Below are positions 38,556 through 48,374 of a stretch of DNA of 64,000 bases, one piece after another. The first letter of the stretch is position 1; every line of letters starts with the position of its first letter. The DNA is from Escherichia phage vB_EcoM_E9.1. Made by a program: the position numbers and the translations under genes. The stretch is from the sequence record PP886230; one strand, 5' to 3'. The notes under the pieces were generated by a model. The model did no database searches. It saw nothing but the letters and a program-made list of their open reading frames with translations, and was not told the origin of the DNA.

Positions 38556-39671
38556 ATGTCTAAATTAGAAAAGCTTCTAAAAGAATCATCTCTTTCTGAT
38601 GAGGCAAAACAGCTAATTCAGGAAGCATGGAATGAAGAAAAGAATACACTAGCCGCAGAGATGCGTGAAGAAATGAAAGGCCGTTATCAGCAAGATTTGG
38701 CTGAACTAACCGAAGGTTTGAATACTATGGTTACTCAAGTCATTGCTGAAGAAATGGGTGCTGTATATGAAGAGAAAAAACGTCTCGTTGAAGATCGTGT
38801 AACTCTACGTAAAACACTAAGCAATTTCTCTGCGTTTTCAAACTCTGTTTTGGCTGAAGAAGTTAAACAAATGCGTAAAGAACGTAAGCATCTTCATGAA
38901 TGCATGGGTAAATTCGTTAATTTTTCTAACGGTATACTAGCAGAAGAGCTAAAAGAATTCCACACTGAAAAACGTCAACTAGTTGAAACTCGCGTTAAAC
39001 TACTTGCTGAAGGTTCACGTCAAATTGCTGAAGCTCGTAATAACTTCATCAAACGTACATCTGAAAGTGCTGCTAAATATATTGCAGAAACCACTCAGAA
39101 GAATCTATATGCGTTGAAACAAGATCTAGTGGAAGCAAAACAAAATATGTTTGGTCGTAAAATCTTTGAAGCATTTGCTCAAGAGTTTAATGTCAAACAA
39201 TTTAATGAAAACTCATTGCTACGTTCCCTAACTGAATCAATTAAATCTAAAGAAGATGAAATTGCTCAAGTTAAGCAAGAACTACATGAAACTGCTAATG
39301 CGGTTAAAGCTGCTAAAACCAAACTACGTATTATGGAAGATGCACAAGCACGTAATGCGATTATGTCTGAACTAGTAAAACCACTAACTGCACAGCAAAA
39401 ACAAATTATGGAATCCCTTCTAGCTACTTCACCTACTGAAAAGCTTAAAGAAGATTTCAGCAAGTACCATAAGTCAGTACTTAACGGTACTAAAGTAAAT
39501 GAATCTGCTACCACTCGTCAAGCAGTTCAGTCTTCCGCTAAGAAAACTCTTGCAGAAGGTAAAGTAATCACTGGCAACCGTCAGGCTATTGTTGAAAGCG
39601 AAGAAATGACCGCTGACGATATGGCATTCCTAAAAGAACTCGATGTTCTTTCAGGTATCAATAAAAAATAA
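38556..39671 (+). CDS. scaffold protein, gp22-like
   Basis: Charged, helix-prone sequence between protease and capsid genes; exact TATAAATA at 38501-38508 upstream. Confidence 0.5.
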   Translation: MSKLEKLLKESSLSDEAKQLIQEAWNEEKNTLAAEMREEMKGRYQQDLAELTEGLNTMVTQVIAEEMGAVYEEKKRLVEDRVTLRKTLSNFSAFSNSVLAEEVKQMRKERKHLHECMGKFVNFSNGILAEELKEFHTEKRQLVETRVKLLAEGSRQIAEARNNFIKRTSESAAKYIAETTQKNLYALKQDLVEAKQNMFGRKIFEAFAQEFNVKQFNENSLLRSLTESIKSKEDEIAQVKQELHETANAVKAAKTKLRIMEDAQARNAIMSELVKPLTAQQKQIMESLLATSPTEKLKEDFSKYHKSVLNGTKVNESATTRQAVQSSAKKTLAEGKVITGNRQAIVESEEMTADDMAFLKELDVLSGINKK

Positions 39672-39709
39672 ACATTTTAAAGCATTTTAATAATCAAATT
39701 TTTCAGTTC

Positions 39710-39727
39710 TATAAATAATATCATACT
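39710..39727 (+). promoter_or_regulatory. late promoter (TATAAATAATATCATACT)
   Basis: Exact T4-type TATAAATA at 39710-39717, about 45 nt upstream of the capsid gene ATG. Confidence 0.55.
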
Positions 39728-39762
39728 GAAAAACGAATATAACATCTTTAAGGAGATATATA

Positions 39763-40938
39763 ATGTCACAACTACTAAATGAATCCAAATGGGTAGCAGT
39801 AAAAGAGAAACTAGTTGAAGGTCTACAGGGTACTCGTAAGTCTGTAATGGAAACTGTTCTTGATAACCATCGTAAAGTTATGCTAACTGAATCCGCAACT
39901 TCTGGTGCAACTACCGCTGGTAACATCGCTACTCTAAACAAAGTGATTCTACCAATTATGCGTCGTGTAATGCCAACCGTTATTGCTAACGAAATCATCG
40001 GTGTTCAACCAATGACTGGTCCAGTTGGTCAGATCCACACCCTACGTGTGCAATATGCTGATAACGCACCTGGTGTTATCGCTGGTGAAGAAATGCTTTC
40101 TCCATACAAAATCGCTAAATCCTACTCTGGTGATCTAAATGCGGATAATAGCAACCCACAAGCTGCTCCTACTAGCCAACTAGAAGGTACTATGGGTCGT
40201 CGCGTTAACATCCGTATTCTACGTGAAACTGTTGAAGCGAAATCTCGTCGTCTATCTGCACGTTGGACTGTTGAATCTGCACAAGATGCTCAATCCCAAC
40301 ATGGTGTTGACGTTGAAGCAGAACTAATGGCTGCAATCGCTCAAGAAGTTACCGTAGAAATCGACCAAGAGCTACTAAGCCGTCTACGTGCACTACCTGG
40401 TGCTGCTGCTGTAACTTATGACCAATCTAAAGTTACTGGTGTTGCAACCTTCGTTGGTGATGAGCACGCTGCTCTAGCAACTCTAATTAACCGTCAAGCA
40501 AACGAAGTTGCTCGTCGTACTAAGCGTGGTGCTGCAAACTGGGCTGTTGTTTCCCCAACTGCACTAACCATTCTACAATCTGCTACTACTTCTAGCTTTG
40601 CACGTACCACTGAAGGTACTTTCGAAGCACCAACTAACGTTAAGTTTGTAGGTACTCTAAACAGCACTATGCGTATTTTTGTTGATACTTATGCAAGTGA
40701 TGCAGAAGATATTCTAATTGGTTATAAAGGTAATGCAGAAACTGATGCTGGGGTGTTCTATTGCCCATACATCCCACTAATGGCTTCCGGTACTGTAATG
40801 GACCCTAACACTGGGGAACTCGTGACCACATTCCTTACCAGGTATGGTTATGTACAATTGACTGATAGTACTTCTTCTCTTGGTAACGCTGCTGACTACT
40901 ACAGCAAAATCGCTATCAAAAACGTTACTTTCATGTAA
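39763..40938 (+). CDS. 23: major capsid protein
   Basis: Follows protease and scaffold genes; late promoter and strong terminator; codon choice looks like a highly expressed gene. Sequence homology to T4 gp23 not verified. Confidence 0.65.
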   Translation: MSQLLNESKWVAVKEKLVEGLQGTRKSVMETVLDNHRKVMLTESATSGATTAGNIATLNKVILPIMRRVMPTVIANEIIGVQPMTGPVGQIHTLRVQYADNAPGVIAGEEMLSPYKIAKSYSGDLNADNSNPQAAPTSQLEGTMGRRVNIRILRETVEAKSRRLSARWTVESAQDAQSQHGVDVEAELMAAIAQEVTVEIDQELLSRLRALPGAAAVTYDQSKVTGVATFVGDEHAALATLINRQANEVARRTKRGAANWAVVSPTALTILQSATTSSFARTTEGTFEAPTNVKFVGTLNSTMRIFVDTYASDAEDILIGYKGNAETDAGVFYCPYIPLMASGTVMDPNTGELVTTFLTRYGYVQLTDSTSSLGNAADYYSKIAIKNVTFM

Positions 40939-40982
40939 TTGTAATAGATTTAAAAGATTTAATCAAGAAATTAAAAACAATA

Positions 40983-41010
40983 GGGACTCTTCGGAGTCCC
41001 TTTTCTTTTT
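40983..41010 (+). terminator. intrinsic terminator with UUCG tetraloop
   Basis: GGGACTC-ttcg-GAGTCCC followed by TTTTCTTTTT. Confidence 0.75.
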
Positions 41011-41013
41011 GTG

Positions 41014-41041
41014 TTGACACACCATCTTTTTTGTGTAATAA
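41014..41041 (+). promoter_or_regulatory. sigma70-like promoter for the accessory island
   Basis: TTGACA 41014-41019, 16-nt spacer, TG-TAATAA(T). Confidence 0.5.
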
Positions 41042-41076
41042 TACGCGTACATTATAAATGAAGAAGAGGAATTTTC

Positions 41077-41997
41077 ATGAAACCAAATGAAGAAAAATTT
41101 ATTAATACAGTGAATGAAAAGTACGGTACTGGTGTGTATTTGTTTGATAAAATGGTATATATTAATGCTCATAAACAGGTTGAACTTTATTGTGTAGAAG
41201 GTGGTCATTATTTCAAAATCACTCCTATGCAAATAGTCCGACCTTCTGCAAAAGGATGTAACATTTGTCAAAAAAACACAGCATACACGACTGAAACGTT
41301 TATTGAAAAAGTTAAAACCATCCATCCAACATTGTCATTTGAGAAAACTATCTACAAAAAACAAAGTGACAGTAATGGGCGAGTCATCGTTACGTGTCAT
41401 AATGATCCGAATGATGTGCATGATTGGATTGTATCTGCCAATACTTTGTTAAGAGGTAAATCAGGGTGTGGTGTTTGTTCTGGTAAAGGCGGGAGGACAT
41501 TGGAGCAATTTGTCAAAGAAGCAAAAAAAGTACATGGTGATGATTATGATTATTCTGAATCATGCTATACTGGTAGTGAAGAATATATGGATATGAAGTG
41601 TAATAATTGCAATGAAAAATTCAAACAACAGCCCAAAGCACACCTTTCAGGACGCGGGTGTCCTAACTGTGGTAAGTATGGATACCAACCATCAAAACCT
41701 GGATATTTCTATGTACAAAAACTAACTAACAATAACAAGACGGTGTACAAATATGGGATCACTGGTGATATGAAACGCCGTGTCAACGAACAAAGCCGCA
41801 ATTCTGAGTTCGAGCATGAAGTACTTATAGAACGCTACTTTGAAGATGGCAATCAACCATTACTGTTGGAAAAGTTCATAAAGAAATACATTGAAAGTGG
41901 TGTTGTAAGTACTGAAGAGTTACCGTCAGGATTTACTGAAACATTTGATGCTAAGTATCTTGAAAGTGTTTTAGAAATTGTAAATACTTTTAAGTAA
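41077..41997 (+). CDS. triple zinc-ribbon protein with C-terminal T5orf172 / GIY-YIG-like domain, 306 aa
   Basis: Three repeated modules each with a CxxC pair (KGCNICQKN, SGCGVCSGKG, MKCNNCNEK/GCPNCGKYG); C-terminal GYFYVQK...YKYGITGDMKRR resembles the GIY-YIG/T5orf172 fold. Confidence 0.5.
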   Translation: MKPNEEKFINTVNEKYGTGVYLFDKMVYINAHKQVELYCVEGGHYFKITPMQIVRPSAKGCNICQKNTAYTTETFIEKVKTIHPTLSFEKTIYKKQSDSNGRVIVTCHNDPNDVHDWIVSANTLLRGKSGCGVCSGKGGRTLEQFVKEAKKVHGDDYDYSESCYTGSEEYMDMKCNNCNEKFKQQPKAHLSGRGCPNCGKYGYQPSKPGYFYVQKLTNNNKTVYKYGITGDMKRRVNEQSRNSEFEHEVLIERYFEDGNQPLLLEKFIKKYIESGVVSTEELPSGFTETFDAKYLESVLEIVNTFK

Positions 41998-42020
41998 ACA
42001 ATCTAAAGGAGTTGACACGG

Positions 42021-42371
42021 ATGTTAACTGTATACAAATTTAACAAAGAAGAGTACTTAAAGAGTCAGTACTCAAATATAGAAATAAATGTTCCTTATGG
42101 TACGTTAGTTGGATATGATGAAGCCACTGAAACATTGTATTATAATGATGATAGATTGGATTATAGTTTAGATTCTTTCATAGAAGATATACTTAATACA
42201 CATACTGAAGATATGTTGTATGAAGAATACATAGATCATTATAGAGAACGTATGTCGGTGCTGCATTCTGATGCTCCTGTACTAAACATAGCACAAGAAC
42301 CATCGGAATTTCAGCCACATAATCCTTTTCAACGTTTAATTGATATTGGTTTAAAATTCACTATTAGTTGA
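42021..42371 (+). CDS. hypothetical protein, about 116 aa
   Basis: Track start is a TTG at 42012; ATG 42021 has an AAGGAG SD. Confidence 0.5.
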   Translation: MLTVYKFNKEEYLKSQYSNIEINVPYGTLVGYDEATETLYYNDDRLDYSLDSFIEDILNTHTEDMLYEEYIDHYRERMSVLHSDAPVLNIAQEPSEFQPHNPFQRLIDIGLKFTIS

Positions 42372-42374
42372 TAG

Positions 42375-42403
42375 ATAAATATCTCCATATTAATGATGGA
42401 GAT
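42375..42403 (+). promoter_or_regulatory. late promoter core followed by an 8-bp hairpin that sequesters the downstream SD
   Basis: ATAAATA at 42375-42381; ATCTCCAT (42381-42388) pairs perfectly with ATGGAGAT (42396-42403), which contains the GGAG SD for ATG 42411. Confidence 0.45.
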
Positions 42404-42410
42404 TGAATCT

Positions 42411-42719
42411 ATGTCACAGATATGTTATGTTATAATAAACTCTGCATGGCCTGACTATGTTAAGATTGGTTTCACTTCTAAATCTGAAATGACAGAGCGT
42501 TTGAGAACGTATCAGACAGCTACCCCGTTTCGTGATTTTGAAGTTTATCATGAAGTTCACTTTGAAGACGCACGTTTAGCTGAAAAAGAGATACATAAAA
42601 GGCTTAAACAAATGAATGCAACTAGACAACCAAACACAGAGTGGTTTAAAATGTCTAAAAAGATAGCAGCAAACATCATTGATTCTGTGTGGGATGATAT
42701 GGATAACGACTTGCTATAG
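42411..42719 (+). CDS. T5orf172 / GIY-YIG-like domain protein, about 102 aa
   Basis: CYVIINSAWPDYVKIGFTS...R...TEWF pattern; track ATG at 42393 lies in the hairpin loop and has no SD. Confidence 0.5.
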   Translation: MSQICYVIINSAWPDYVKIGFTSKSEMTERLRTYQTATPFRDFEVYHEVHFEDARLAEKEIHKRLKQMNATRQPNTEWFKMSKKIAANIIDSVWDDMDNDLL

Positions 42720-42759
42720 GAATAAATATAGTATATATTAATCATAAAGGGATTTATAC

Positions 42760-44370
42760 ATGAGCATAAGTTTTAATAACCCATTGGATACAATGACCAG
42801 TACTGGTGCTAATGGATCTTTAGAACTAATAGTGCTTGGTGGTACACCAACTAACCCAAGACCTATTCGTTTTAATTCGTCATCAGTTATTATACCAGTA
42901 CAAACGTTACCTACTGGTGAACAAGGTGCAATGGTTTTTGATCGAAACGAATTAGTTTTGAAGTATCATAACGGTACAAGTTGGATTGCAGTATATGATA
43001 CTGATACTATTTTGGAACCAATTAGAATTTCATTAGATGAAGTAAACAGAAAATTAAATTTAAAAGTAGAAAGTGTAACATACAGTAGTAGTACTGTTCC
43101 TAGTGCAAGTATTAGTGGAACAAACTTAAACATTGTATTCCCTACTGCTTCTAGTGGTGGTTCTGGTCCAACTGGTCTTTACACTTCACTTAAACCTGGT
43201 GCTATTACACAATATTCATTGACTTCTGGTCAATCTGTTGCTAGTATACGTGAACAAATGTCAGGGCAATCGAATGGACAAAGTGGACGAAACGGTTCAC
43301 AAGGTGCTCCGTGGAAAACGTCTGACGGTTGGTGTTTTGCTGATGGTATGTGGTGGCAATGGGAGGGGGAAAATGGTACAATTACCAAACAAGTACCAAA
43401 CCTTAACCAAAACGCGTATTTAAAAGGTATAACAACATCAGGTGTAACTAAAACTGATAGTGTTATTGGTAGTAGTGGTAACATTAGTGGAACTGTATTG
43501 AGTGTTGCCCAGTTACCATCACACTCATTTAGTTTTAGTGGAACCACTGGTGCTGCTGGTCGTCATGGTCATAGTCAAGCACTAAAAGGTATGGACCGTA
43601 GTGGTCTAAATGCGTTAACTTCAAGTAATGATAACGGTATACCAACTGTAATCAATAACATTAACGAAGCACCAGACCACATTCACTCATTTAGTGGAAA
43701 CACTAACACACTTGGTGGAAACCAACCACACTATCATGGTATTAGCAACATTGATGTGGAACACTTTAACGTTGCATACCTATATAACATTGCTGAATCT
43801 AACGTCGCATTGAGTGAAAAAGTTGCAAACACTCGTTATGTACTAAAAACTGGTGATACAATGACTGGTTCATTGACTATTGCAAACAGTGCGTCAATTA
43901 AGTCAAATGATACATCATTAGTTCTATATTTCCGTAACGCAAGCGGTGGTGAGCGTGCGGCAGTGTATCATAACTCTTCAAATAATACATTGAGATTACG
44001 TTCCGGTGGAGCAGAAGTTACTGTAAACTCTTCTGGTACTTTAGCTGCTCCATCATTAACTGTTTCTAACAACTCAGCTACTGTTGGTGGTAAAAATATT
44101 GTTCGTTCAATTAACGGTACTGCTGCTGATGCTAGTGGCAACGTTACTTTGCAAATTAGTACTAATAACGTACAAAGTATTCGTTTGAGTGCACGTATTG
44201 AAACAAGTAAAATACCTGATTCTTCATGGACATATACACCAGAAGGTGCATTTATGGATGGCGTATGGATTTCTGTTAATGGTAGTTCAGGCACTCACTT
44301 AGAACGAATTAGTTATCGCTATGTTCAAATGCAAATAAATGGTAACTGGGAAACAGTACGTCAACAATAA
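42760..44370 (+). CDS. tail fibre protein, 536 aa
   Basis: KTGDTMTGSLTI and Ser/Thr/Asn/Gly-rich repeats typical of tail fibre distal regions; followed by an assembly chaperone gene. Confidence 0.65.
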   Translation: MSISFNNPLDTMTSTGANGSLELIVLGGTPTNPRPIRFNSSSVIIPVQTLPTGEQGAMVFDRNELVLKYHNGTSWIAVYDTDTILEPIRISLDEVNRKLNLKVESVTYSSSTVPSASISGTNLNIVFPTASSGGSGPTGLYTSLKPGAITQYSLTSGQSVASIREQMSGQSNGQSGRNGSQGAPWKTSDGWCFADGMWWQWEGENGTITKQVPNLNQNAYLKGITTSGVTKTDSVIGSSGNISGTVLSVAQLPSHSFSFSGTTGAAGRHGHSQALKGMDRSGLNALTSSNDNGIPTVINNINEAPDHIHSFSGNTNTLGGNQPHYHGISNIDVEHFNVAYLYNIAESNVALSEKVANTRYVLKTGDTMTGSLTIANSASIKSNDTSLVLYFRNASGGERAAVYHNSSNNTLRLRSGGAEVTVNSSGTLAAPSLTVSNNSATVGGKNIVRSINGTAADASGNVTLQISTNNVQSIRLSARIETSKIPDSSWTYTPEGAFMDGVWISVNGSSGTHLERISYRYVQMQINGNWETVRQQ

Positions 44371-44380
44371 GGAATGTGTA

Positions 44381-44896
44381 ATGCAACTAACAAATTTTAA
44401 GATGTATGAAAAAGAAGGTGGTAATCCTAATTCTTTGTATATGATGTCCGATGAAGGTATGGATTGGTATGAATCTCGTGAATTGTTTGACATTAATAAA
44501 GCAAAATTTATGTATGATATTAACGGTTTAATTGTTTCAGCATCATATAACATTTATGATCTAGTACCTTTAGGTTTTAGTGTTTCTGAAATTGAATATG
44601 ATGGTGATATTAACAAACTTTATGGTATGGTTTACGATGGAAATACTATTCATGACTATATTGAAACTAAAGAAGAAAAAATTGAACGCCTAAAAAATGA
44701 ATTATCTAATTTGAAATACATTGCAATTCAAGAACTTGGACACTTAAAAACGGCTATGGATCTTGAGTTAGCAACTGATGAAGAAGCTGTATTGTTTGTG
44801 AAATTGAAAGATTATGTAACGCAATTGAATTCAATCAAACCAGCAGACATGATCAAGAAAACATTTTCATTTCCAGTTAAACCGGAAAAAAAATGA
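44381..44896 (+). CDS. tail fibre assembly chaperone (Tfa-like)
   Basis: C-terminal AMDLELATDEEAVLFVKLKDYVTQLNSIK aligns with the lambda Tfa [29 protein letters not shown] region as recalled; ATG 44381 has an AAGGAA SD. Confidence 0.75.
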   Translation: MQLTNFKMYEKEGGNPNSLYMMSDEGMDWYESRELFDINKAKFMYDINGLIVSASYNIYDLVPLGFSVSEIEYDGDINKLYGMVYDGNTIHDYIETKEEKIERLKNELSNLKYIAIQELGHLKTAMDLELATDEEAVLFVKLKDYVTQLNSIKPADMIKKTFSFPVKPEKK

Positions 44897-44925
44897 GACA
44901 ACACGTAAAGACGTGATACAATTAA

Positions 44926-44961
44926 GTCATCTCACCGATTGTGGTGAGGTGACATTTTTTT
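44926..44961 (+). terminator. intrinsic terminator (11-bp stem, T7)
   Basis: GTCATCTCACC-gattgt-GGTGAGGTGAC followed by ATTTTTTT; a GAGACA-N16-TGaTACAAT promoter-like element lies at 44895-44922. Confidence 0.65.
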
Positions 44962-44986
44962 GAAAACACACATGGAGAAATACAAA

Positions 44987-45289
44987 ATGGCTAAATCTAA
45001 AAAAGAAGTTAAAGTTGAAATTCGTGATCTAAACGATGAACAACGTAAACGTCTCGGTGACGCACTTAACAACATTGTTGTACAACTAACTTTCATTGAT
45101 GATACCAAAGCATCCTTATCTGATTTTGTTTCTAGTGTTTCTGATGAACTTGGTATCGATGCATCTGATATCAAACAAGCTGCACAACGTATGTACAAAG
45201 GTGATTACTTTGACAAACAAAATAAACTCGATAATATCGAAACTATTCTTAGTGTTACTAATAATCTTCCACAAGCAGATGATTACTAA
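44987..45289 (+). CDS. hypothetical protein, about 100 aa
   Basis: ATG 44987 has a GGAG SD; track start at 44960 is a TTG. Confidence 0.5.
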   Translation: MAKSKKEVKVEIRDLNDEQRKRLGDALNNIVVQLTFIDDTKASLSDFVSSVSDELGIDASDIKQAAQRMYKGDYFDKQNKLDNIETILSVTNNLPQADDY

Positions 45290-45311
45290 TTAGTACTAAA
45301 ATATATTAAAT

Positions 45312-45339
45312 AGCCTCCAATGACGGAGGCTTTCTTTTT
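45312..45339 (+). terminator. intrinsic terminator upstream of the polymerase gene
   Basis: AGCCTCC-aatgac-GGAGGCT followed by TTCTTTTT; about 30 nt before the polymerase start. Confidence 0.6.
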
Positions 45340-45368
45340 AACTTAATAAACGTAAGGGAATACAAACG

Positions 45369-48300
45369 ATGTATATCGATGCTTATATGGAACGTAAACG
45401 TACTGGTGATATTCTTCATGTAGTTGAACGTAAGAATGGTAAACGTATTCTACGCGAATTAGATCCAGTATATGAATATTATGTTGAATCCCCACAAGGA
45501 ACACATAAAACTGTTTATGGTACAATGGCTAAACATTTTGAGTTTCAAACTCAAGCTCAAATGAATAAAAGTGTAGAGCAACACAAAAGTGAAGGTCTAC
45601 GTATTTTTGAAAGTGATTGTAACATTACATTTAAAACATTAGCTAAAGAATATATGGGAAAAGGTTCACCCGATTTGAACATCGTGTTCTTCGATATCGA
45701 GACTGATTTCCATAAGAAATTTGGTTATGCTCCACCATCAGACCCGTTTAACCGAGTAACCGCTATTTCTCTATATCAATCATGGACTGGAAAGGATTAT
45801 GTACTTACTTTACCACCTGCTGATATGGAAATTTATGAAGCACAAGATATTGTTCGCCAACTAAATGAAGAAACAAACGATCCTAACAGTACTGTAATTT
45901 TATATACAGACGAAAAGGAAATGTTTATGGAATTCTTTAGTTTAATTGATGATTCTGATGTTATTTCAGGATGGAATAGTGAATTCTTTGATATTCCATA
46001 TATGATCAATCGAACTAAAAAAATCTTCAATGAAGCAACAACTGCTCGTTGGTGTTTATGGAATAAAAAACCAAATTCACGTGAAGCAGACAACTTTGGT
46101 AAAACTGTTCAAACATATGATCTGGTAGGTCGCGTCCATCTTGATTATTTGGCTTTGTATAAGAAACATGCTGGTCAAGTTGAACAATCTTATAAACTAG
46201 ATTATATTGCTGAAAAAGTAACTAAAGAAAATAAAGTATCCTATGAAGGTTCATTGGATAAACTTTACAGAGAGGATTACATTACTTTCTTGCGTTATTC
46301 TAAACAGGATAGTATTCTTCTTAAAAAGATTGATGCTAAATGTGACTATATCAACCTACACAATCGACTTGCACACAAAGAATGTGTACTTATCAGTACA
46401 ACAATGGGTTCAGTAGCACTAATCGACACTGCTATTATCAACTTAGCACATACTCGTGGTGAAGTTGTTTTCAACAAAGCACCGAAAGATGATCTTGAGT
46501 TTGATCCAGAAATGGAATATTATGGTGAAGATGGTGAAGAAGAAGATGAGAAAATTAGTGCAAAAGCAGCAGGTGCATGGGTACAAGATCCAGTACTAGG
46601 ACTTGTAAGTGACCTTGGGTGTACTGACTTTAACTCTCTTTACCCTACTGTTCTACGTACTTTGGGTATGAGTACTGAATGTATTCTTGGTCAATTACGT
46701 CAAGATTACACCGATGCGTATCTTGCAGCTAAAATCCAAGAACAGAAGAACAAATCTAAATCTAAATCATTTGAACCAGATTGGACTGCGGCATGGCATG
46801 GTTTATTTGCTGCTGTTGAATTTACAATGGTTCATGAAAAGTCAGAAGAAACATTGATTGTTGATTTAGAAGATGGGAGTTCTTTTAAAGCAACGGGCAA
46901 AGAGCTATATGATATTATTTTTGCAGAAGATAGTACTATTGTACTTAGTGCAAACGGAACACTTTTTGATAAGTCTAAGTCTGGTGTAATTCCTGACATT
47001 CTAACTCAATGGTATTCTGAACGTAAAGCACAGCAAAAAATGGTCATTGACTACAAACATATGTATACTGATGGTTGGGAGTTTAATGGCTATGAAAAAG
47101 TCGAACCACTACTATCAAACTATACCCCTGGTACAATGTTTAGAACTAATATTCATGATAATGATCCTGTATACTTACTTCGTAAAGAAATTGGTAAAGG
47201 ACAGTGGGATGAAGTTGCTAAGTTGATTGTAGAAAACGGATTAGTACTAAAAGATGGTCGTATTTTCTGTCCTAAAGAAGAAAAAGATTACTTCAAACAA
47301 CGTAGTGCTTTCTGGAAACAGAACCAACAGATTCGTAAGATTCTTCTAAACAGTCTATATGGTGCACTATTGAACAAAGGTTCTCGTTTTTTTGACAAAC
47401 GTTTAGGTCAATCCGTAACATTAACTGGACGTTCTATGACCAAACATATGGCAAGTCGTATCAATGAAATTACTACTGGTGTATATAACCACCAAGGTGG
47501 TTCAGTAATTTATGGTGATACTGACTCAGTTTACTTTAGTGTAACTCATTATCTGAAAGAACAAGGTATTCCATATAATCTATCTAAAGAAGAGATTGTT
47601 GATATGTATATTAAAATTGGTGAAGAAGTTGGTGAATCTTTCCCATCATTTATGCATGAGATGTTCAACACTGGTATTGAAAAAGGTAAGATTGTTGGTG
47701 CAGACCTTGAGATGGTTGGTTCGCGTGGCCTATTCTTGAAGAAAAAACGTTATGCAATTCTGAAGTACTGGGAAGATGGGTTCCGTAAAGATATTGATGG
47801 TAAACCAGGTGAAATCAAAGCGATGGGTCTTGAAATTAAACGCTCAGACACGCCAAAATACATCCAGAACTTCCTAGAAGAGACTCTAATCGCATTACTG
47901 GTAGGTGAGAGTGAACAACAGCTAAAACAGCGTGTACGTGAGTTTAAGGACGTATTTAAGGATATGCCTGTACATGAAAAAGGTTCACCAAAAACTGTAA
48001 AAAACTACACTAATTTAGAGGCTGAATATCAGCTAACTGGTAAGTGTAAAGTTGGTCACGTTCTTGCTGGTATCCAATGGAACCGTCTACGTGAAGTTTA
48101 TGATGATAAATCTGTTCCAGAAGTAACAGATGGAACAAAAGTAATTGTCTGTAACTTAAAAGATAATCCTATGGGAATTAAAGCAGTTGGTTATCCAATT
48201 GACTGTGTTGAGTATCTTCCAGAATGGTTCTTGGAACTACCATTTGATACTGAAAAAATGGAAGAGATTGTTCTAACTAAAAAATTAGAGAATATTTTTG

Positions 48301-48374
48301 GTATTTTGGATATGGATATTGGTATTCATGAAAAAAGTACTGCGTCAGTAAACAATGGATTCTTCACTTGGTAA
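45369..48374 (+). CDS. 43: family B DNA polymerase with 3'-5' exonuclease domain, gp43-like
   Basis: Exo I FDIETD, motif A KILLNSLYGALLN, motif C IYGDTDSVYF. Confidence 0.9.
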   Translation: MYIDAYMERKRTGDILHVVERKNGKRILRELDPVYEYYVESPQGTHKTVYGTMAKHFEFQTQAQMNKSVEQHKSEGLRIFESDCNITFKTLAKEYMGKGSPDLNIVFFDIETDFHKKFGYAPPSDPFNRVTAISLYQSWTGKDYVLTLPPADMEIYEAQDIVRQLNEETNDPNSTVILYTDEKEMFMEFFSLIDDSDVISGWNSEFFDIPYMINRTKKIFNEATTARWCLWNKKPNSREADNFGKTVQTYDLVGRVHLDYLALYKKHAGQVEQSYKLDYIAEKVTKENKVSYEGSLDKLYREDYITFLRYSKQDSILLKKIDAKCDYINLHNRLAHKECVLISTTMGSVALIDTAIINLAHTRGEVVFNKAPKDDLEFDPEMEYYGEDGEEEDEKISAKAAGAWVQDPVLGLVSDLGCTDFNSLYPTVLRTLGMSTECILGQLRQDYTDAYLAAKIQEQKNKSKSKSFEPDWTAAWHGLFAAVEFTMVHEKSEETLIVDLEDGSSFKATGKELYDIIFAEDSTIVLSANGTLFDKSKSGVIPDILTQWYSERKAQQKMVIDYKHMYTDGWEFNGYEKVEPLLSNYTPGTMFRTNIHDNDPVYLLRKEIGKGQWDEVAKLIVENGLVLKDGRIFCPKEEKDYFKQRSAFWKQNQQIRKILLNSLYGALLNKGSRFFDKRLGQSVTLTGRSMTKHMASRINEITTGVYNHQGGSVIYGDTDSVYFSVTHYLKEQGIPYNLSKEEIVDMYIKIGEEVGESFPSFMHEMFNTGIEKGKIVGADLEMVGSRGLFLKKKRYAILKYWEDGFRKDIDGKPGEIKAMGLEIKRSDTPKYIQNFLEETLIALLVGESEQQLKQRVREFKDVFKDMPVHEKGSPKTVKNYTNLEAEYQLTGKCKVGHVLAGIQWNRLREVYDDKSVPEVTDGTKVIVCNLKDNPMGIKAVGYPIDCVEYLPEWFLELPFDTEKMEEIVLTKKLENIFGILDMDIGIHEKSTASVNNGFFTW

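Follow-up and report, generated by a model that had tools for sequence, protein, structure and literature searches.

A probable T5orf172-family homing-endonuclease cassette in an insertion slot beside the capsid gene of a jumbo coliphage, next to conserved tail-fibre genes

We analyzed the region between the major capsid gene and the DNA polymerase gene in a stretch of 64,000 nucleotides (nt) from Escherichia phage vB_EcoM_E9.1 (sequence record PP886230), referred to here as the window. Megablast of the region placed the phage in Asteriusvirus, among the 121Q/PBECO4-like jumbo phages of E. coli (the ~350 kb group). We proposed, with a probability of roughly 85%, that the first gene after the capsid gene belongs to a homing-endonuclease cassette of the T5orf172 family, which occupies an invasion hot spot by the capsid gene and lies beside conserved backbone genes that include a host-range module of tail fibre and fibre chaperone. 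This corrects an over-reading in an earlier note on the same DNA, which had described the whole 4.3-kb block behind the capsid gene as an accessory island: only ~1 kb appears to be mobile, and the tail-fibre module is part of the backbone. The open reading frames (ORFs), domains, promoter and terminators that the note had described were nevertheless all found, in or near the same places. The features of the slot and its flank, with ORF lengths in amino acids (aa), are as follows.

39763-40938, + strand: major capsid gene, gp23-type (Pfam Gp23 at 1e-89)
40689-40875, + strand: putative co-conversion tract, inside the 3' end of the major capsid gene
40982-41001 (feature to 41010), + strand: intrinsic terminator of the capsid gene (8-bp stem, 5 GC pairs, T-run)
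41011-42020, + strand: mobile endonuclease cassette, as delimited by alignment with the empty-slot phage PBECO4
41014-41042, + strand: sigma70-like promoter with extended -10, TTGACA-17-(TG)TAATAAT (score 11/12)
41077-41997, + strand: 306-aa ORF, putative homing endonuclease of the T5orf172 family

The capsid terminator of PBECO4 leads, after a short spacer, straight to the gene for a 116-aa protein, and no endonuclease gene is present. Homology between the window and PBECO4 was lost at ~41011 and regained exactly at the ATG of the 116-aa gene at 42021, as seen both in the multiple alignment and in the list of differences. The cassette thus defined consists of 1,010 nt that replace the ~50 bp spacer of empty-slot genomes (net insert +962 bp), and it contains the promoter, a ribosome-binding site, the 306-aa ORF and a new ribosome-binding site for the 116-aa gene. 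The left edge of the insertion slot is the capsid-gene terminator, which was kept in the alignment of eight genomes. The promoter at 41014-41042 was the top-scoring site of the region in a pattern scan, and the alleles of 365/368 aa found in relatives are preceded by equivalent TTGACA/TTTACA-17-TATAAT sites. The block had earlier been credited with a sigma70-like promoter of its own; the promoter exists, but it lies inside the endonuclease cassette and is absent from empty-slot genomes, with no such site in PBECO4.

We surveyed the slot with the empty PBECO4 junction as the query, together with the loci fetched from relatives. The slot was empty in PBECO4, SD-1, SD-2, SD-6, SD-15, fEgEco12 and CMSTMSU; it was extended by +962 bp in 8 records (305/306-aa allele), by ~+1045 bp in 3 records (332-aa allele) and by ~+1145 bp in 12 records (365/368-aa allele), and further inserts of +917 bp and +1231 bp (406-aa allele) occurred in one phage each and of ~+1.7 kb in ph0011 and UE-S1. 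Presence and absence among close relatives were defined at one precise site, with boundaries exactly at 41011 and 42020. The 305/306-aa, 365-aa and empty states were each observed in both PBECO4-like and vB_Ec-M-J-like backbones. At least 24 public contigs encode the 306-aa protein in identical form, each time in the same setting; the closest other allele, that of P0001, was 92% identical and belonged to a WPEC5-like backbone whose fibre tip differs. The slot ORF of ph0011 (locus L010, 2691-4289) encodes 532 aa, is not of the T5orf172 family, and gave a match to DUF7487 and another, weak one of restriction-endonuclease-like type; here the hot spot has probably been taken by another sort of selfish nuclease gene.

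Outside the genus, the slot of Munch and fENko-Kae01 holds a 304-aa orthologue with 66% identity, and the slot is empty in Pectobacterium phage CBB and Serratia phage BF. In Cronobacter phage GAP32, the slot after the capsid gene holds a 77-aa ORF, GAP32_251 (locus L015, 1390-1623), which is a C-terminal fragment from the same T5orf172 endonuclease family, 40% identical to aa 254-305 of the 306-aa protein (E = 5e-12); because it matches the C-terminus of the endonuclease only, we regarded it as a decayed endonuclease gene. A homing endonuclease gene classically passes through a cycle of intact, variant, decayed and empty states at a single site, and this slot, where all four occur, offers a clean natural example of that cycle in jumbo coliphages.

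The flank of the slot carries a further trace. Save for the cassette and a cluster in the 3' end of the capsid gene, the window was ~99.8% identical to PBECO4 over the 10.5 kb compared, with ~50 substitutions outside the cassette, ~30 of them beyond the capsid cluster. The cluster comprises 22 substitutions, which are synonymous without exception and confined to 40689-40875, within the final 250 nt of the capsid gene; the 926 nt of the gene ahead of the cluster are identical. The haplotype of this tract is that of Sharanji and WPEC5, both carriers of the 305-aa allele. Because the clustered synonymous tract matches the haplotype of endonuclease carriers, we interpreted it as a footprint of homing with co-conversion. 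The same kind of switch was seen independently in a second pair of phages: WPEC5 and vB_Ec-M-J are 98-100% identical over most of the locus and divergent over ~40620-42040, where WPEC5 has a Sharanji-type flank with the 305-aa allele and vB_Ec-M-J a 121Q-type flank with the 365-aa allele, and their capsid haplotypes switch from ~40683, in the same stretch as in the window/PBECO4 pair. The tightly packed synonymous changes at 40689-40716 might mark the target site or an immunity site. Within the genus, the synonymous substitution rate (dS) of the capsid gene was 0.33-0.38, compared with ~0.76-1.5 for neighbouring genes, and this low value could arise from codon bias or from repeated homogenisation by conversion.

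The 306-aa protein consists of three zinc (Zn)-ribbon repeats, at aa 1-68 (41077-41280), 69-139 (41281-41493) and 140-202 (41494-41682), followed by a domain with the GIY-YIG fold at aa 203-306 (41683-41994). The repeats, of ~65 aa each, can be aligned with one another and share the pattern C...(C/H)...GCxxC; across 41 homologues, nine Cys never vary, DUF4379 matched the third repeat at 8e-9, and DUF723 is precomputed on 71 of 71 homologues. In the AlphaFold2 (AF2) model, which has a mean predicted local distance difference test (pLDDT) score of 88, a repeat is formed by a helix, a beta-hairpin and a knuckle, and the C-terminal domain has the topology beta-beta-alpha-beta-alpha-alpha. The assignment of the latter to the T5orf172/GIY-YIG superfamily of nucleases, as earlier supposed, was borne out by three kinds of evidence: the match of the protein to phrog_681 'endonuclease' at 1.4e-65, the modelled fold, and an hhalign comparison with the family of the 102-aa T5orf172 protein encoded further downstream, which itself passes the Pfam threshold. 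With deep alignments, this comparison brought the KxGxT, R, E and TE(T/W)F motifs into register at E = 7e-4; alignments of just 5 and 6 sequences gave E = 0.049. Residues Y212, K225, G227, I228, E265 and E288 are invariant in the 41 homologues and R234, R235, E238 and H247 are at least 90% conserved, so that the residues of catalytic type, an Arg in helix 1 and acidic residues, are present in the domain. The SHEFM2K allele of the slot exceeds the Pfam T5orf172 cut-off. The canonical GIY-YIG family PF01541, N-terminal in endonucleases of the Seg type, gave no match in the 306-aa protein at E <= 0.1.

Mosaicism extends into the gene itself: identity to the alleles of other isolates falls to only ~55% over 41468-41656, in the third Zn-ribbon, and aa 136-200 are 94% identical to the metagenomic P0001. 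In addition, tblastn aligned aa 148-305 with the ICP1 'tcgB putative homing endonuclease' at 31% identity, and the slot allele of Turkey5 matched Pfam CapR at 1e-10. Barth et al. 2023 (PMC10448857) have already described the architecture and behaviour seen here, for T5orf172 homing endonucleases that carry tandem CapR/DUF723/DUF4379 Zn fingers and swap domains; they reported capsid genes in 31% of the neighbourhoods. As in those proteins, the nuclease-type domain is C-terminal and the tandem Zn-finger modules are N-terminal, and the gene is free-standing by an essential capsid gene, sporadic in relatives and represented by domain-swapped alleles. Two differences from that account are the host genome, a ~350 kb E. 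coli jumbo phage outside the enriched lineages named in the sections consulted, and the nuclease domain, a divergent branch under the Pfam T5orf172 cut-off. Nuclease activity of a T5orf172 domain has been shown for ICP1 Odn, of which the E180A mutant is inactive (PMC8263062).

Gene content, fold, the exact limits of presence and absence, the clustered synonymous tract, synteny and purifying selection were observed directly. As to how DNA is cut, where the target lies and which way transfer ran, we infer the following scheme from the sequence comparisons. The three treble-clef Zn-ribbons would serve as DNA-binding modules, arranged as beads on a string ahead of the C-terminal nuclease domain. 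During co-infection, the enzyme would cut the cassette-free allele, with the break probably within or close to the conserved 3' end of the capsid gene, and repair from the donor would copy in the cassette together with up to ~320 bp of the upstream flank. The window phage would then be a PBECO4-type backbone that gained a Sharanji-type allele by homing, and the third Zn-ribbon of the acquired allele would additionally have been swapped. Crosses of PBECO4-like with Sharanji/121Q-like phages could test homing by T5orf172 endonucleases, the evidence for which has so far come mostly from genome comparisons. In annotation and phage engineering, the capsid 3' end should be regarded as a recombination hot spot.

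Several observations weigh against this reading. The Pfam T5orf172 match of the 306-aa protein is below threshold (17 bits versus a cut-off of 20), a precomputed PF10544 match was present in 0 of 71 homologues, and Foldseek with the whole 306-aa model returned nothing. Flank haplotype and allele do not always go together: fEgEco12, with an empty slot, has a capsid 3' haplotype identical to that of WPEC5 (305 aa), and PBECO4, also empty, has one identical to that of SHEFM2K (332 aa). With regard to the fibre module, gp221, the orthologue of the fibre, was absent among the 62 virion proteins of phAPEC6 (PMC7247149). Since empty genomes bear carrier haplotypes, some of the states may reflect precise loss of the cassette or transfer without conversion of the flank; the carrier-type flanks of empty genomes alternatively suggest that a resistant flank spread without the cassette.

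The shared haplotypes of fEgEco12 and WPEC5 and of PBECO4 and SHEFM2K would also fit an ancient polymorphism that is reshuffled by homologous recombination and occasionally removed by precise deletion, with the endonuclease currently passive, and such an account could draw on the readiness with which jumbo phages recombine and on a second small mosaic tract, in the fibre gene, that adjoins no nuclease gene. We considered it unlikely, because both near-identical pairs diverge next to the slot, from ~40683-40689, and because the ORFs are intact, the motifs are conserved and the cassette has its own conserved promoter. Moreover, the same allele types recur across divergent backbones, and the coexistence of intact, decayed and empty states fits the classical endonuclease life cycle.

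It is very unlikely that the 306-aa protein has been domesticated, in the manner of CapR, to regulate capsid or late genes by binding DNA, with its nuclease fold a relic. The precedent for such a role is CapR of the PLE satellite, whose ancestry is traced to the Zn-finger domains of T5orf172 homing endonucleases (PMC10448857) and which represses the capsid operon of ICP1 (PMC8096241); the Zn-ribbon repeats of the 306-aa protein are of the same type, its gene adjoins the capsid gene, and its T5orf172 match is sub-threshold. PLE CapR, however, is a repressor without a nuclease domain, whereas the 306-aa protein keeps this domain, with Y212, K225, G227, R234/R235, E265 and E288 invariant or nearly so in the 41 homologues, and its gene is dispensable to the phage, because the slot is empty in many close relatives. 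Furthermore, several of the slot occupants are not orthologous, including the unrelated 532-aa ORF and the decayed remnant, and the flank of the cassette contains the conversion-like tract. A homing endonuclease thus remains the reading that we prefer for the 306-aa protein.

Free-standing endonuclease genes in this position have a well-known counterpart, and the parallel with T4 segD that had been drawn for the region holds, in that segD, like the gene in the window, is a free-standing endonuclease gene of the GIY-YIG superfamily directly downstream of a gp23-type capsid gene (gene 23 in T4). By analogy with the T4 Seg family, the same mechanism would be expected, with cutting of the allele that lacks the gene and co-conversion of the flank. 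In Seg proteins, a canonical GIY-YIG domain (PF01541) occupies the N-terminus, and DNA is bound by a C-terminal region that has no Zn-ribbon repeats; in the 306-aa protein, the order of the domains is reversed and the nuclease is of the T5orf172 branch. In addition, segD lies on the opposite strand, unlike the cassette in the window. The two genes are analogous, not orthologous.

The remainder of the block, up to the polymerase gene directly downstream of it, contains the following features.

42021-42371, + strand: 116-aa conserved ORF from ATG (119 aa from TTG at 42012; phrog_15724 at 9e-58)
42411-42719, + strand: 102-aa ORF for a stand-alone T5orf172 protein of the GIY-YIG superfamily (108 aa from 42393)
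42760-44370, + strand: 536-aa predicted tail fibre with the motif KTGDTMTGS (phrog_13229 at 1e-273)
44381-44896, + strand: 171-aa Tfa-type chaperone (185 aa from 44339)
44926-44953 (feature to 44963), + strand: strong intrinsic terminator 3' of the chaperone gene (12-bp stem, 6 GC pairs, seven T)
44987-45289, + strand: 100-aa conserved ORF (109 aa from 44960; phrog_12534 at 2e-45)
45312-45331 (feature to 45340), + strand: block-closing terminator from the pattern scan, which scores on both strands
45369-48374: family-B DNA polymerase, 1001 aa

We compared the gene order in 11 Asteriusvirus-type loci and in Serratia phage BF, Pectobacterium phage CBB, GAP32, Munch and fENko-Kae01. The order of the five genes from capsid to polymerase was kept in the 11 Asteriusvirus-type loci, with the chaperone gene missing or doubled in three; the same five-gene order was present in BF (Eneladusvirus) and CBB (Mimasvirus), and its capsid-proximal part was also seen in GAP32, Munch and fENko-Kae01. 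The genes for the 116-aa protein, the 102-aa protein, the fibre, the chaperone and the 100-aa protein are thus a vertically inherited backbone, syntenic in at least four sampled lineages. Because the genes behind the endonuclease gene are fixed, the region is an ordinary one and not a mobile island. The earlier proposal of a mobile endonuclease-type gene therefore applies to the first gene, with its cassette (41011-42020) variably present, and fails for the five others; the accessory island as such did not survive the comparison with relatives, which the note had itself named as a refuting test and in which five of the six genes were syntenic, other genera included, and the block did not vary as a unit with island boundaries of its own, only 41011-42020 being variable. 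Existing GenBank annotation names the genes of relatives as endonuclease, T5orf172 or GIY-YIG protein, tail fibre and tail fibre assembly protein.

A mobile host-range island that spans all 4.3 kb, in which the T5orf172 genes move the fibre and chaperone genes or couple anti-defence nucleases to them, might be suggested by the two nuclease-family genes directly upstream of a fibre with a variable tip and its chaperone, and by the endonuclease-flanked 'islands' proposed for other phages (PMC10448857), but it is scarcely credible in view of the same order from the 116-aa gene to the 100-aa ORF in every fetched relative and in other genera, the unremarkable GC content, the ~1.8 kb between the endonuclease and fibre-tip tracts of the near-identical WPEC5 and vB_Ec-M-J, the position of the fibre-module boundaries inside the fibre gene and not at a nuclease gene, and the presence of the 102-aa gene in all fetched relatives.

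The 536-aa protein is predicted to be a virion tail fibre by its orthology with CBB_260, for which 11 peptides were found in virion mass spectrometry (PMC5259590), and with ENKO_290, which bears the GenBank note 'identified with LC-MS/MS'. A PDB sequence search with the fibre was empty or at chance level. The N-terminal two thirds of the protein are conserved and the tip, ~aa 401-536 (43960-44367), is exchangeable. The tip was 100% identical in the PBECO4-type phages listed (21 records at >=99%) and ~62% identical in WPEC3 of the vB_Ec-M-J clade, and the fibres of rV5-like phages showed 35-44% identity to it. In WPEC5, Turkey5 and the P0001 genome, a Gp53-like_C tip without a chaperone gene replaces the tip of the window type, in longer fibres of 569-572 aa (loci L005 5232-6941, L006 5827-7545 and L021 4685-6400).

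The chaperone gene begins 11 nt past the stop codon of the fibre gene. Its product matched Caudo_TAP at 7.4e-9 (36.3 bits versus a cut-off of 22.1), phrog_136 at 5e-37 and, at 3.5e-8, the solved structure of the Mu tail fibre assembly protein U (PDB 5yvq_B), which place it in the Tfa/Caudo_TAP group. Like lambda Tfa and Mu gpU, it is encoded directly downstream of the fibre and co-varies with the tip; some relatives depart from the Tfa/gpU systems in having the chaperone-free Gp53-like_C tip, and phage A4 has two chaperone genes. The orthologue Gp220 was not detected in phAPEC6 virions (PMC7247149).

The fibre module has its breakpoints within the fibre gene itself and not at a nuclease gene. 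In the comparison of WPEC5 with vB_Ec-M-J, ~1.8 kb with 96-100% identity lies between the fibre-tip tract (43814-44882) and the endonuclease tract (40620-42040), and on this ground we rejected one endonuclease-driven tract that would take in the fibre tip as well. Because the tracts are separate, there is no sign that the fibre module is moved by the nuclease genes, and the earlier idea of a host-range cassette moved by endonuclease-like genes is not supported. Swapping of the fibre tip with its chaperone is ordinary exchange of a receptor-binding, host-range module, independent of the endonuclease, and for annotation and phage engineering the tip and the Tfa chaperone are to be treated as such a module. 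A second mosaic tract was observed in the fibre gene at 43416-43500, with 11 substitutions relative to PBECO4 in 85 nt of otherwise near-identical sequence; there is no nuclease gene beside it.

The 102-aa protein matched Pfam T5orf172 at 3.7e-13 (50 bits). Its family comprises 32 clusters with identity of at least 63%, all of 100-108 aa, and its profile retrieved 2024 relatives at E <= 1e-3, many of them of <=120 aa; a PDB sequence search with this T5orf172-only family profile was empty or at chance level. The gene was in the same position in every fetched relative, including BF, CBB and GAP32, and therefore cannot be homing among them. Between the E. coli phages and the Serratia and Pectobacterium phages, the protein is 69% identical, compared with 74-75% for the polymerase; its ratio of nonsynonymous to synonymous substitution rates (dN/dS) is ~0.04, and the motif residues Y6, K18, G20, T22, R30, E58, E60, E77 and W78 are invariant. 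This conservation, the low dN/dS and the intact motifs indicated a constrained functional gene, neither a decaying relic nor mobile. PADLOC gave only domain-level matches of the protein to PDC-S57 and PD-Lambda-1, which are not evidence of a defence or anti-defence function, and a search of the rest of the 64 kb window found a paralogue of neither T5orf172 protein.

The role of this conserved protein, which consists of a nuclease domain only, is the one question of some novelty in the region. Tentatively, it may be a domesticated minimal GIY-YIG nuclease with a core function across the jumbo-phage group, perhaps together with the acidic 116-aa protein; its near-polymerase conservation would then reflect that core role. 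Possible functions of the two proteins are an EndoII-like attack on host or competitor DNA, or a pair of nuclease and inhibitor. Like T4 endonuclease II (DenA), the 102-aa protein is a nuclease domain without a DNA-binding appendage; unlike it, the 102-aa protein is related at the superfamily level only, and its gene lies within a structural-gene cluster.

The 116-aa family comprises 12 clusters with identity of at least 68%, and the protein is 31% identical to a 142-aa protein that occupies its place in Serratia phage BF. With a dN/dS of 0.1-0.15, it evolves faster than the 102-aa protein. Its AF2 model, built from 12 close homologues only, is unreliable (pLDDT 47.8). The 116-aa and 102-aa ORFs were also considered as a split endonuclease, which was rejected because the 116-aa protein has neither Cys nor a Zn-ribbon.

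The 100-aa ORF was syntenic in all fetched relatives, with a dN/dS of 0.06-0.08. It had no match in Pfam, NCBIfam or PDB, and its sole functional hint is a weak match to phrog_639 'transcriptional regulator' (2e-7). The ORF is bracketed by two strong terminators and lies just upstream of the DNA polymerase gene.

NCBIfam gave zero matches for all six proteins of the block, and Rfam and tRNA scans of 39500-46000 gave nothing meaningful. Promoter-like sites overall were not enriched (24 found versus 24.7 expected from shuffles), and 8 terminator-like sites were found versus 3.0 expected. The terminators that border the block, at 40982-41001 and 45312-45331, score on both strands and are thus bidirectional hairpins.

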